From IMG/VR virus record IMGVR_UViG_3300045988_122518: DNA of 64,000 nucleotides. One strand, 5' to 3'. This DNA comes from a virus. The notes under the pieces are model-generated. The model saw nothing but the letters and a program-made list of their open reading frames with translations. It had not been told where the DNA came from and did not search any database. Shown piece by piece: positions 23,525 through 23,961 of this stretch (positions within the stretch are counted from its first letter, which is position 1; the number at the start of each line of letters is the position of its first letter). The translations under genes and the position numbers were made by a program.

Positions 23525-23961
23525 GCGGGCGTGGCGGAACTGGCAGACGCCTGGGACTTTAATGTATTCTATCCATATAAAACATGGATACTGTTATGTA
23601 ATAATAGCAGAGAGTGCCTAAGAGGAAACTCTTAGAGTAGAGGCTGGCTAAAACGGCGAAGGCGAATACAGAACGCCGTGCTAAATTAAATAGTAGGTGC
23701 TAGGACAGCTTGGTGAAGTGGGAACCATAAAAATTGGGGTAACAGCCCACACTGAGAGAGAAATGGATAAATGGAGTTTGAGGAACAGCCTATTATTTAT
23801 AAATGTGTAGAGAGTATACACCAGCTACCTAAGTCTGAATAAGATATGGTAAAGACGTACTCCAGACTACAACACAGAAATGTGGCTATGGTGACATAGA
23901 GTAGTAAGAAAATCCCATGAGGTAAACCCTCGTACGAGTTCGATTCTCGTCGCCCGCACCA
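23525..23961 (+). tRNA. tRNA-Leu (UAA) containing a group I intron between positions 34 and 35
   Basis: Exon 1 GCGGGCG-TG-GCG-GAACTGGCAGA-CGC-C-TGGGA-CTT; exon 2 AAAA-TCCCA-long variable arm-ACGAG-TTCGATT-CTCGT-CGCCCGC-A-CCA; intron 23560-23908 is 349 nt, follows U34 and ends in G. Confidence 0.7.
23560..23908 (+). other. group I intron (tRNA-Leu UAA type, no ORF)
   Basis: 349 nt inserted between the wobble U and A35; last nucleotide is G; contains AGACTA/AAGATATGG-like core elements; canonical insertion site of cyanobacterial/plastid tRNA-Leu introns. Confidence 0.55.

Follow-up and report, generated by a model that had tools for sequence, protein, structure and literature searches.

A probable group I intron between U34 and A35 of a tRNA-Leu(UAA) gene in a phage tRNA array

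The tRNA-Leu(UAA) gene at 23525-23961 of the viral record IMGVR_UViG_3300045988_122518 has an insert of 349 nt (23560-23908) between U34 and A35 that is very probably a bacterial tRNA-type group I intron, with splicing predicted from its sequence. The stretch of 64,000 nt analyzed here, referred to as the window, carries phage-type genes and a phage tRNA array, in which ARAGORN found 15 uninterrupted tRNA genes and made 19 calls when introns were allowed. The gene, the insert, and all elements described below are on the + strand. The insert starts with TAATG and ends with ...GTAGTAAG; it is preceded by a U and its last base is a G. A sequence-only reading of this DNA had described a tRNA-Leu(UAA) with exon ends TGGGA-CTT and AAAA-TCCCA and a 349-nt insert, placed after the wobble U with G as its final base, at the U34/A35 position classically occupied by the cyanobacterial and plastid introns. 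The sequence reads exactly so (U23559 and G23908), and the register at that site is confirmed by both ARAGORN and uninterrupted alleles of the gene.

Exon 1 (23525-23559), whose 3´ end is ...CCTGGGA-CTT, supplies the 5´ strand of the acceptor stem, the D arm, the 5´ strand of the anticodon stem, and the loop bases C32-U33-U34. Exon 2 (23909-23961) begins with AAAA-TCCCA and provides A35-A36, the rest of the anticodon arm, the long variable arm, and the T arm, followed in its 3´ part by the 3´ strand of the acceptor stem, A73, and an encoded CCA, so that it terminates in ACCA. In its default mode ARAGORN did not call the tRNA-Leu gene at 23525-23961; with its intron search it reported tRNA-Leu(taa) [23525,23961] i(36,349). 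Joining the exons in silico gives a product of 88 nt that folds as a clean type II tRNA-Leu(UAA) with a long variable arm, A73, and CCA, and with the predicted junction ...GGGACUU/AAAAUCCC. This 88-nt sequence is 100% identical to the uninterrupted tRNA-Leu(UAA) in three related IMG/VR phage contigs (L040, L042, and L043), where exon 1 matches the 5´ part of the gene without difference, the 349-nt insert is precisely missing, and the flanks are ~99% identical to the window. The boundaries of the insert are fixed because the uninterrupted allele equals the spliced sequence and, given this 100% match, the observation of a split tRNA-Leu gene is far beyond chance. No register other than CTT/...G/AAAA combines an anticodon loop of 7 nt with an insert that is preceded by U and ends in G. 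With 450 of the 1069 Leu codons, TTA is used more often than any other Leu codon of the window, and the genome has a GC content of 33.5%. A sigma-70-type promoter at 23304-23332 (TTGACA, 17 nt, TATAAT; 12/12 consensus match) stands ~190 nt upstream of the gene and is a possible start of the precursor transcript, with a putative role in expression of the tRNA.

The assignment of the insert to group I is borne out by its covarying core, by a family covariance model, and by relatives that match the Rfam model of these introns, as discussed below. In an alignment of 18 sequences, 95.3% of the cells in the core helices were paired, compared with 24-39% in slid controls, and 25 of the 53 pairs had two-sided changes; the observed values were reached in 0 of 500 shuffles. 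All 53 core pairs are standard in the window copy. Covariation supports a predicted P3-P9 core that includes the P3/P7 pseudoknot, with the exception of P5 in the window's own lineage (L002, L003, L004, L006, L008, L013, L024, L025, and L027). The P1 helix would be formed by a 5´ strand at 23557-23560, consisting of the exon bases C-U-U and the first intron base U, and by the internal guide sequence A-G-A-G at 23611-23614, of which GAG (23612-23614) pairs with the exon CUU. The 5´ splice site lies after U23559, which pairs with G23612 as the U.G wobble; this pair is represented by UG in 16 members of the family alignment and by CG in one, and the P1 register is the same in the Rfam alignments of L016 and L037. 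The guide GAG is invariant in both family alignments, A1 and A2. The putative P1 is assigned by conservation and by analogy, as its pairs hardly vary and show no covariation. A four-base guide, GAGU, was considered and rejected, since U23615 covaries with A23639 as part of P2.

The P2 hairpin (23615-23639) has a GAAA tetraloop at 23625-23628 and a bulged A, and 8 of its 10 pairs have two-sided changes across the family. The 5´ strand of P3 (GGCUGG, 23642-23647) is followed by J3/4 (CUAAA, 23648-23652) and pairs in the family alignment with CCAGCU at 23821-23826; the helix is 93.5% paired and crosses P7, hence the pseudoknot. P4, formed by 23653-23658 with 23674-23679, is 100% paired and shows a swap of A-U and U-A. 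It encloses a stretch of 15 nt (23659-23673) in the window, where other lineages have a 4-bp P5 hairpin. No standard pairing for P5 was found within 23659-23673 of the window copy; P5 is present and covarying in other family members, and is reduced to this unpaired stretch in the window's lineage. P6 (23687-23799) is a 12-bp stem of 23687-23698 with 23788-23799, capped by a branched structure of ~90 nt.

The catalytic center is recognizable despite an altered P7. The 5´ strand of P7 (23810-23817: G23810, bulged A23811, and G23812-U23817) lies within the R element GUAGAGAGUAU, and J8/7 (AAAGAC) together with the 3´ strand of P7 (GUACUCC) at 23851-23863 is the counterpart of the S element AAGAcAUAGUCC. 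Where the window has GUAGAGAGUAU ... AAAGACGUACUCC, its relatives have GUAGAGACUAU ... AAGACAUAGUCC, which Rfam aligns to the R and S positions. The P7 strands are GAGUAU/GUACUC in the window and GACUAU/AUAGUC, GAUCAU/AUGAUC, GAGCAU/GUGCUC, or GACUU/AAGUC in relatives, and the pair at A1 columns 105/175 occurs as CG in seven sequences, GC in seven, GU in two, and UA in two. Neither the bulged A23811 nor the G23812-C23862 pair, at which guanosine is predicted to bind, varies in the family alignment. P8 (23827-23850; helices 6 and 7) has 5 of 7 pairs altered on both sides and is 24 nt longer in L001 and L029. It contains an exact 11-nt motif, CCUAAG at 23828-23833 with UAUGG at 23845-23849, which we take from established knowledge of the motif to be a GAAA-tetraloop receptor and the likely dock for the GAAA loop of P2. 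The P9 domain (23866-23905; helices 8-11) consists of an outer helix, 23866-23870 with 23901-23905, enclosing two hairpins, P9a (23873-23884) with a GAAA loop and P9b (23886-23899) with a GUGA loop; 7 of its 14 pairs have two-sided changes, and the GNRA loops are kept. The 3´ splice site lies directly after the terminal G (omega-G, 23908), and the last intron base is G in the mapped family members, the ARAGORN register of L007 and L013 having been corrected before this comparison. A P10 pairing with the 3´ exon is missing in the window's lineage. Two other pairings were rejected on comparative data. One takes CCAGACUAC...GUAGU (23862-23905) as the R/P7 element, but ACUAC/GUAGU is the outer helix of P9. 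The other is the minimum-free-energy helix GAGUGC/GUACUC, in which GUACUC would be drawn away from GAGUAU, its partner in P7, a pairing that is fully compensated in relatives; UGC (23615-23617) is assigned to P2.

Two large peripheral inserts set the window's lineage apart from the canonical core. In this lineage P1 is limited to 3-4 bp, and the guide is separated from the splice site by 52 nt that include two lineage-specific hairpins (23570-23590 and 23591-23610). Compensatory changes occur in the second of them (CTGTTAT/ATAGCAG versus CTACTAT/ATAGTAG), and both hairpins are missing in L001, L016, and the bacterial members; the same P1-loop region holds an HNH gene in L009, L010, and L017. 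P6, which ranges in the family from 27 nt to ~555 nt, is another site of the HNH gene in relatives. A 24-27-nt block of the window's P6 extension recurs in L015, L023, and L028. The extension was considered as a decayed HNH gene, a proposal that was rejected, as no similarity to the versions with an HNH gene could be detected in it.

The sequence-only reading had proposed the Rfam model Intron_gpI as a check, and would have counted the lack of a covariance-model hit against the intron. For RF00028, such a lack is formally what was found: the model gave no match on the window at its gathering threshold of 50 bits, nor at E<=10 on an 801-nt slice. On relatives, the same model scored 53.0 bits for L037, 47.4 bits (E 3.6e-11) for L016, and 25.5 bits (E 1.2e-4) for L002, the last being a member of the window's own lineage, and all three alignments share the register of the intron map described above. 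As a control, six cyanobacterial-type introns scored 79-105 bits. A covariance model, R1, built from nine family members with none from the window's lineage, gave a single match on the window (23586-23915), full length, with 137.2 bits and an E value of 1.7e-36. R1 takes up 105 nt of the window's P6 as a loop insertion and places the 5´ strand of P1 on the wrong segment (23586 onward) because it cannot span the 52-nt insert. On cyanobacterial-type tRNA-Leu introns R1 matched at full length in 27 of 30, with 40-74 bits, a score that comes partly from the shared exon ends. Judged from the scores of the relatives and from R1, the Rfam miss is a false negative, a failure of sensitivity that we ascribe to the changes in P7, the reduction of P5, and the two large inserts. 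It provides a concrete case in which the standard Rfam model misses a genuine group I intron. As these same features, including the peripheral inserts, defeat the model, routine tRNA finding drops tRNA-Leu from the annotated set of this phage.

Splicing of this intron may be pictured as follows. A precursor transcript would be made with the intron included, the guide GAG (23612-23614) would pair with the exon CUU to place a U.G wobble at the 5´ splice site, and the P3-P8 core would fold with its P3/P7 pseudoknot. The fold would be stabilized by docking of the P2 GAAA loop in the 11-nt receptor of P8, with a contribution from the GNRA loops of P9. A free guanosine, bound at the G23812-C23862 pair of P7, would attack after U23559; G23908 would then replace the guanosine and the exons would be joined, furnishing an 88-nt tRNA that reads UUA and UUG.

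The tRNA-Leu gene is not the only interrupted one in the array. The sequence-only reading had taken the presence of other interrupted tRNAs alongside as a sign of intron mobility among phage tRNA genes. The interrupted genes are real, at 24727-25256 (Gly), 6298-6460 (Pro), and 7201-7399 (Glu), but their inserts are not group I introns: one is an element of 455 nt whose only gene encodes a PD-(D/E)XK endonuclease, and the other two are short and tRNA-like. Spread of the tRNA-Leu intron among the tRNA genes of the window is therefore not demonstrated by them. The ARAGORN call for the first of them, tRNA-Thr(tgt) i(35,455) at 24727-25256, was rejected as being in the wrong register, as the uninterrupted allele is a tRNA-Gly(UCC) that is split at 36/37. 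Exact-junction searches for uninterrupted alleles of the tRNA-Pro and tRNA-Glu genes gave no match; uninterrupted Pro alleles were found by synteny. These non-group-I interruptions are a stranger observation than the tRNA-Leu intron itself.

An insert of this kind could also be a group I descendant that no longer splices, leaving tRNA-Leu(UAA) as a pseudogene that is tolerated since phage tRNAs are often dispensable. The odd features of the window's lineage are what one would cite for it, namely the reduced P5, the missing P10, and the guide displaced by 52 nt, together with the lack of an Rfam match on the window, the lack of an endonuclease gene in the window copy, and the presence in the window of at least one other tRNA gene, Gly(UCC), with an insert for which no means of removal is visible. 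However, the lineage that keeps these features nevertheless compensates in P2, P7, P8, and P9, which points to selection on the fold. Since none of the 53 core pairs of the window copy is non-standard, since it retains the guanosine-binding pair, the bulged A, J8/7, and the terminal G, and since UUA is used more often than any other Leu codon of the window, we consider loss of splicing improbable.

Removal by proteins, either by an archaeal-style bulge-helix-bulge endonuclease or through cleavage by an RNase followed by a phage RNA ligase, seems to us scarcely credible for an insert with a full covarying group I core and U(-1)/omega-G boundaries, even though the window does encode an RNA ligase (38835-40211, phrog_968) and the inserts in its other tRNA genes cannot be ribozymes. 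No bulge-helix-bulge arrangement was seen in the sequence at the Leu exon-intron junctions, and the relatives of the intron include chromosomal tRNA-Leu genes of bacteria without such machinery. The existence of an intron might itself be questioned, as ARAGORN in its intron mode makes register errors in the window (the split Gly(UCC) called Thr(tgt)) and could have assembled a gene from two unrelated tRNA-like halves that flank a structured non-coding RNA. This notion, to which we give next to no weight, is refuted by three related phages, whose uninterrupted gene, located at the same place in the genome, matches the joined halves base for base.

A search with the core pattern recovered 27 IMG/VR viral contigs and 10 bacterial MAG contigs. 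The family members, of 200-896 nt, are nearly all in tRNA-Leu(UAA) in the CTT/...G/AAAA register, and are found at this gene in large phages of the gut/rumen type and in MAG chromosomes of Clostridia, Bacilli, Tenericutes, and Planctomycetota. The relatives of the window are IMG/VR viral contigs of 65-197 kb; in INPHARED phage genomes the intron was unmatched, with only short tRNA-Thr matches. Three allelic states occur among genomes that are more than 95% identical, the gene being uninterrupted, interrupted by an ORF-less intron, or interrupted by an intron that carries an HNH gene. The intron measures 349 nt in the window, 764 nt with an HNH gene in L006, and 896 nt with a LAGLIDADG gene in L022, and the flanks are 93-99% identical across these intron-bearing alleles and the intron-minus alleles of L040, L042, and L043. 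The endonuclease genes in relatives are HNH (PF01844 and PF13392) and LAGLIDADG_2 (PF03161), and occupy three places in the intron, HNH genes being in P6 or the P1 loop and LAGLIDADG_2 adjoining P7.

The three allelic states and the endonuclease genes of the relatives support the view that the intron is an optional and horizontally mobile element, as comparison of these sequences suggests, and the near-identical genomes that differ in this way offer a tidy natural example of the homing cycle. The proposal of intron mobility among phage tRNA genes is thereby upheld with regard to alleles and endonuclease-bearing relatives, though not with regard to spread among the tRNAs of this genome. The intron of the window (23560-23908) has no + strand ORF of at least 40 aa, so it contains no homing-endonuclease gene. 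It therefore cannot move by itself, and spread of the window copy requires either recombination or an endonuclease provided in trans.

Among known introns, that of the cyanobacterial and plastid tRNA-Leu(UAA) (e.g., Anabaena/Nostoc PCC 7120) interrupts the same gene at the same CUU/...G/AAAA site, and has the GAG guide, the P2 with a GAAA loop, and the P3-P9 order in common with the window. The window intron differs in its P7 (GAGUAU/GUACUC, compared with GACUC/GAGUC in cyanobacterial-type sequences), reduced P5, exact 11-nt P8 receptor, and large P1 and P6 inserts, in giving no Rfam Intron_gpI match where cyanobacterial introns reach 79-105 bits, and in residing in a phage tRNA array instead of a cyanobacterial chromosome. 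Its nearest relatives outside phages are the introns of Clostridia and other gut/rumen bacterial MAGs (L030-L039), which occupy the same tRNA-Leu(UAA) site and share the blocks GCUGGCUAA..CGGCGAA..AACGCCG, GUGUAGAGA, and CCAGAC. Unlike the window intron, they measure 200-230 nt, their P7 is canonical (GACUAU/AUAGUC), their P5 has 4 bp, their P6 is short, and their guide, UUU-GAG, permits P10; they stand in single-tRNA loci. The IC3 intron in the tRNA-Ile(CAU) gene of Azoarcus is similar to that of the window: P1 has three base pairs, the GAAA loop of P2 has its tetraloop receptor in P8, P9 has a GNRA loop, the R element is GUGUAGAGA, and the intron is small with no P5abc. It differs in being in another tRNA at another site, in its full P5, and in lacking inserts in the P1 loop and P6. 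By this analogy, the window intron appears to resemble the IC3 introns of Azoarcus and Anabaena. Judged by architecture alone (P2, no P5abc, the P2 loop and P8 receptor, and the P9 GNRA loops), it is consistent with subgroup IC3.

In the bacterial tRNA intron class Leu.3Ug, which has been placed in subgroup IC3 (Williams 2020, bioRxiv 10.1101/2020.01.27.920355), the insertion is between U34 and A35 of tRNA-Leu(UAA) and similarity to the classical cyanobacterial intron is detectable; the window intron has this insertion point, and the similarity is seen in R1, which gives 137 bits on the window and matches 27 of 30 cyanobacterial-type introns. A survey of bacterial tRNA introns (mSystems 2026, PMC13011429) found tRNA-Leu 34/35 to be a common site and described an HNH-containing group I intron in Bacteroidota tRNA-Leu(UAA), with HNH genes in long introns. 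Compared by description, these long introns agree with L003, L004, L006, L012, and similar members, whereas the survey covers bacterial genomes and the intron of the window, which lacks an ORF, is carried by a phage. The literature covered, which was incomplete, contained no account of group I introns in the tRNA-Leu genes of phages, which is weak evidence of novelty, and nothing on RAGATH-33.

The window intron is a fairly ordinary further member of a known intron family, and existing knowledge of group I chemistry is unchanged by it. Its location is of modest consequence, as the classic tRNA-Leu(UAA) site is here occupied in phage tRNA genes by a family also present in gut and rumen bacteria, which bears on how these introns spread. 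We propose tentatively, and with more doubt than confidence, that phage tRNA arrays may move the ‘ancient’ tRNA-Leu(UAA) intron between unrelated bacteria. If so, the shared U34/A35 site would partly reflect continuing phage-mediated homing and not vertical descent alone. A separable part of this doubtful proposal concerns the timing of the endonuclease. The HNH genes of endonuclease-bearing relatives have in-frame TAG codons, read as Gln, and with timing through TAG recoding the production of endonuclease, and hence the spread of the intron, would be tied to the late switch of the phage to TAG-recoded translation.

Huge gut phages known as Jug phages have been described with many introns of ~206 nt and, along with them, HNH, PDDEXK_5, GIY-YIG, and LAGLIDADG genes (PMC12363816). 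In the passages covered here those introns are in protein-coding genes, and the word ‘tRNA’ gave no match in the text of the article, in contrast to the window intron in tRNA-Leu. Two members of the present family, L011 and L020, have the intron apparently inside a coding region and not in a tRNA, and in this respect resemble the Jug phage introns as described in those passages.

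The tRNA-Leu(UAA) gene at 23525-23961 (+) is laid out as the sequence-only reading had described it: on direct reading, exon 1 ends in ...CCTGGGA-CTT, a 349-nt insert (23560-23908) begins with TAATG and ends with ...GTAGTAAG, and exon 2 runs from AAAA-TCCCA to the final ACCA. Neither default ARAGORN nor the Rfam tRNA model called the gene, and ARAGORN with intron search returned tRNA-Leu(taa) [23525,23961] with an intron of 349 nt. When the insert is removed in silico, the remaining 88 nt fold as a clean tRNA-Leu(UAA) with a long variable arm, A73, and an encoded CCA. The decisive check on the insert is the comparison with uninterrupted alleles. 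Four related IMG/VR phage contigs matched the spliced junction exactly. The uninterrupted tRNA-Leu of the related contigs L040, L042, and L043 equals the spliced window sequence at 88/88 bases, and the flanks match also; L041, likewise intron-free, differs at two bases of the tRNA. As the uninterrupted alleles reproduce the spliced sequence and the synteny alignment to them skips from window position 23562 to 23909, the insert is real, has the boundaries given here, and is optional among close relatives, which confirms the claimed interruption at U34/A35.

Related inserts occur in both phages and bacteria. Six IMG/VR contigs share an 18-mer with the 3' part of the insert, and a degenerate P3-P4 pattern was found in 27 viral contigs (~15 metagenomes) and 10 bacterial MAG contigs, the latter assigned to Clostridia (rumen, gut), Bacilli, Tenericutes, and Planctomycetaceae. 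The inserts are 200-896 nt long, and in nearly all family members ARAGORN shows a tRNA-Leu(UAA) split in the register CTT/...G/AAAA. Among the exceptions, L028 (6598-7001, (-)) has tRNA-Leu(CAA) as host, with C at -1 giving a C-G pair in P1, the 'Leu.3Cg' situation of Williams 2020 (bioRxiv 10.1101/2020.01.27.920355); L036 has another tRNA as host; and in L011 (about 9690-9900) and L020 the sequence 5' of the splice site resembles a coding region, not a tRNA. Six further contigs (L001 at 4190-4578, L012, L014, L018, L019, and L013) carry the intron in a 77-78-nt tRNA with anticodon UAA that lacks the long variable arm and is thus no standard tRNA-Leu body.

The insert was mapped by hand onto a group I secondary structure. 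The exon CUU (23557-23559) pairs with GAG (23612-23614) to form P1, with a U.G wobble at the splice site, and P2 (23615-23639) is closed by a GAAA loop. P3 (23642-23647 with 23821-23826) crosses P7, as in group I introns generally, and is followed by J3/4 (23648-23652, CUAAA), P4 (23653-23658 with 23674-23679), and P6 (23687-23799), which consists of a 12-bp stem plus an extension. Downstream of these lie P8 (23827-23850), P9 (23866-23870 with 23901-23905), which encloses two GNRA hairpins, and omega-G at 23908. P7, formed by G23810 and 23812-23817 with 23857-23863, leaves A23811 bulged and contains the predicted guanosine site, G23812-C23862. It is the most informative helix: GAGUAU/GUACUC in the window is replaced in relatives by GACUAU/AUAGUC (the canonical R/S sequence), GAUCAU/AUGAUC, GAGCAU/GUGCUC, or GACUU/AAGUC. 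P8 also contains an exact 11-nt GAAA-tetraloop receptor motif (CCUAAG with UAUGG), which, judging from the known motif, would act as a receptor; a P2 GAAA loop combined with a P8 receptor is the arrangement of the Azoarcus IC3 intron.

Pairs of this structure were counted in an alignment of 18 family members from which the variable P1-loop and P6 inserts had been taken out. Standard pairs fill 95.3% of 946 cells, versus 24-39% in controls with the 3' partners shifted by 1-3 columns, and changes on both sides are seen in 25 of the 53 pairs; none of 500 shuffles reached the observed values on any of five measures. The same picture emerged from nine other members aligned separately, which added P5 and P6.

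The Rfam Intron_gpI model (RF00028), which the sequence-only reading had proposed as a check, has no match on the window at its gathering score; nothing was returned at E<=10 in an 801-nt slice or at E<=1 in the whole window. That reading had named a missing covariance-model match, together with no detectable spliced tRNA-Leu, as what would count against it. Taken literally, the window gives the first half of this, but its relatives show that the model fails in sensitivity. The 200-nt intron of a Clostridiales MAG (L037) scores 53.0 bits on Intron_gpI, above the threshold of 50; the 218-nt intron of a phage (L016) scores 47.4 bits (E 3.6e-11); and L002, which is of the window's own lineage and has a core nearly identical to that of the window and a minimal P6, scores 25.5 bits (E 1.2e-4). 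In these alignments Rfam places P2, P3, P4, R, S, and P9 as in the hand map. A covariance model, R1, was also trained on nine members: seven from bacterial MAGs (L030-L034, L037, L039) and two from phages (L016, L011), none of them from the window's lineage. R1 has a single match on the window, at 23586-23915, which is full length (137.2 bits, E 1.7e-36), treats 105 nt of the P6 loop as an insertion, and stops precisely at ...AAG/AAAAUCC.

To connect the family with curated introns, cyanobacterial-type tRNA-Leu introns were taken from metagenomes with a 20-mer of the Anabaena intron. The 20-mer was found at 120 loci, 108 of which have a split tRNA containing it; most of these were called Leu(UAA), with the same register in the examples listed. 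R1 aligned over its full length with 27 of 30 such introns (40-74 bits), and six of them, as a positive control, scored 79-105 bits on Intron_gpI. The chain thus leads from the Rfam model through the cyanobacterial introns and the phage/Clostridia family to the window, and the absent Rfam match is a sensitivity failure. According to Williams 2020 (bioRxiv 10.1101/2020.01.27.920355), none of the 12 Rfam seed sequences is bacterial, a model for bacterial tRNA introns increased the yield by 20%, and the four classical types, Leu.3Ug among them, carry the listing IC3.

The window copy has several peculiarities. P5, a 4-bp covarying hairpin in the bacterial and several of the phage members, is replaced in the window's lineage by an unpaired 15-nt stretch (23659-23673). 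The UUU before GAG, which in several relatives could form P10 with the AAA of the 3' exon, is absent, and two hairpins (23570-23610) lie within the 52 nt between the splice site and the guide sequence. P6 bears a branched extension of ~90 nt, of which only a 24-27-nt block recurs elsewhere (L015, L023, L028). These features break none of the 53 core pairs, all of which are standard in the window, and the lineage with the reduced P5 and displaced guide shows compensatory changes of its own. On account of the intact core and these changes, the ribozyme is probably active. We conjecture that, compared with the compact bacterial versions, it may rely more heavily on the tRNA body or a protein.

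The group I interpretation is thus supported by the R1 score, the covarying core, and the Intron_gpI matches of relatives, and we are confident that the insert is a group I intron of the bacterial tRNA-Leu type that works, or did so until very recently; the splicing itself we infer. An inactive relic, for which the reduced P5 and the missing UUU might be cited, is improbable beside the unbroken core and the compensatory changes. Removal that depends on protein seems highly improbable for a copy with every core pair in place. Equally hard to credit is a joining artefact of ARAGORN, since L040, L042, and L043 contain the uninterrupted gene identical at 88 bases.

Given that the insert is such an intron, its distribution bears on mobility. 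Genomes with 93-99% identity in the neighbourhood of the gene show three allelic states: intron-free (L040, L041, L042, L043), ORF-less with 349 nt (the window), and endonuclease-bearing. An HNH gene lies in P6 of the 764-nt intron of L006 and the 789-nt introns of L003 and L004, and in the P1 loop of the 735-nt introns of L009, L010, and L017, while the 896-nt intron of L022 carries a LAGLIDADG_2 gene just 3' of the P7 5' strand. Pfam confirms these assignments (HNH, PF01844 and PF13392; LAGLIDADG_2, 1.7e-30). Endonuclease genes at three different points within one intron family, combined with presence or absence at a fixed site, are the usual signature of homing. No endonuclease is encoded in the window copy, which therefore cannot home by itself.

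The tRNA-Leu(UAA) intron at 34/35 is the classical bacterial and plastid case. A 2026 survey (PMC13011429) counts position 34/35 of tRNA-Leu among the common sites and describes HNH genes within Bacteroidota tRNA-Leu(UAA) introns, and PMC12363816 reports huge gut phages full of small group I introns and HNH, PDDEXK_5, and LAGLIDADG genes, those introns being described there in protein-coding genes. Our literature search, of incomplete coverage, found no description of the tRNA-Leu intron family in phage tRNA genes; the step from the known cases to a phage tRNA-Leu intron is small.

The other interrupted tRNAs that had been noticed in the window are real, but they do not hold group I introns, and these inserts are a more unusual feature of the window than the Leu intron. 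ARAGORN called the gene at 24727-25256 Thr(tgt), which is ruled out by the uninterrupted allele ...TCGGC-CTTCCAA-GCCGA... (L040, L042, L043, L005); this allele identifies the gene as tRNA-Gly(UCC), interrupted between C36 and A37. Its 455-nt insert (24763-25217), precisely missing in the same four contigs, consists almost entirely of a PD-(D/E)XK endonuclease gene (ORF 24803-25204; PF11645, I-Ssp6803I-type; 1.9e-24). With only 53 non-coding nt it has no room for a ribozyme, and it is preceded by C and ends in T, without U(-1)/omega-G. In related contigs, comparable endonuclease-only inserts occupy the anticodon loop of four other tRNA genes: Asp in L016 and L041, Lys in L040, and Arg in L017.

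The remaining two inserts, also in anticodon loops, are tRNA-like. That of tRNA-Pro(UGG) (6298-6460), of 87 nt at about 6331-6419, resembles a small tRNA, with 35.1 bits on the Rfam tRNA model (6332-6415), an acceptor-like stem (GGCAAGA/TGTTGCC), and a T arm (ATGAG-TTCGAAT-CTCAT). It is found only in the window and L044, and since tRNA-Pro is uninterrupted in seven syntenic relatives, it is mobile or recent. The 123-nt insert of tRNA-Glu(UUC) (7201-7399; insert about 7237-7359), too short for a group I intron, has a 7-bp terminal acceptor-like stem (CTCAAAA/TTTTGAG) and a T-arm-like hairpin (GTTGG-TGCAAGT-CCAAC), and is kept in all nine related contigs retrieved. In related phages, Lys, Gln, and Met tRNA genes likewise have tRNA-like units within their anticodon loops (L027, 703-848; L025, 3660-3797 (-); L009, 2266-2477); two of them end in NCCA, and ARAGORN calls that of L027 a tRNA whose anticodon, UUA, would decode the stop codon UAA. 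Our literature search turned up no report of 'tRNA within tRNA' arrangements like these. Genes for an RNA ligase (phrog_968, 38835-40211 (+)) and an RNA-binding protein (phrog_850, 28244-29812 (+)) lie close to the tRNA arrays, and the ligase would be a candidate for rejoining tRNA halves, if nucleases excise the non-ribozyme inserts.

The window DNA is that of a phage. It has a GC content of 33.5%, matches IMG/VR viral contigs of 65-197 kb (mostly 159-197 kb), and encodes, by PHROGs, both topoisomerase II subunits, an RNA ligase, a PhoH-like protein, a DNA ligase, and an RNA-binding protein; default ARAGORN finds 15 uninterrupted tRNA genes with encoded CCA. ARAGORN also reports a suppressor tRNA(CUA) with a long variable arm at 7663-7752. 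Many long ORFs, e.g., 8933-10426 and 53098-54399, are open only with TAG as sense (up to eight in frame) and stop at TAA (34) or TGA (9), and in-frame TAG in the relatives' intron-encoded HNH genes aligns with Gln. In at least some of its genes, the phage very probably translates TAG as Gln. In a related phage (L029, 759-1030, (-)), the suppressor tRNA(CUA) gene holds a 196-nt group I intron (Intron_gpI 58.2 bits, above threshold), and production of the recoding tRNA would there depend on splicing. TTA is the commonest Leu codon of the window (450 of 1069), so the phage would plausibly benefit from a tRNA-Leu(UAA).

A perfect sigma-70 consensus promoter (23304-23332) lies ~190 nt upstream of tRNA-Leu. 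It is one of three 12/12 matches (TTGACA, 17 nt, TATAAT) within 1.6 kb, the others being at 23101-23129 and 24610-24638 (all (+)); a tRNA gene follows each of those at 23304 and 24610, and the former is also followed by a small ORF. Fourteen nt past the CCA of tRNA-Leu begins a RAGATH-33 RNA (RF03102, 23975-24103; 123.3 bits, threshold 120.4), for whose function the searchable literature gave no description. It sits on a ~258-nt indel (about 23966-24223; last bases ...GGGTCATAGCTACCA) that is present in L006, L040, L042, and L043 and absent from L005, L022, and L041, and therefore looks like part of a small optional element. A type-P1 twister ribozyme match (RF03160) at 497-547 (+) is sub-threshold (39 bits against 67.2; E 5.5e-5). 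ROOL RNAs (RF03087, 263-290 bits) lie within the tRNA arrays of three relatives (L002, 7507-8092 (-); L007, 3472-4037 (-); L013, 10008-10599 (-)).
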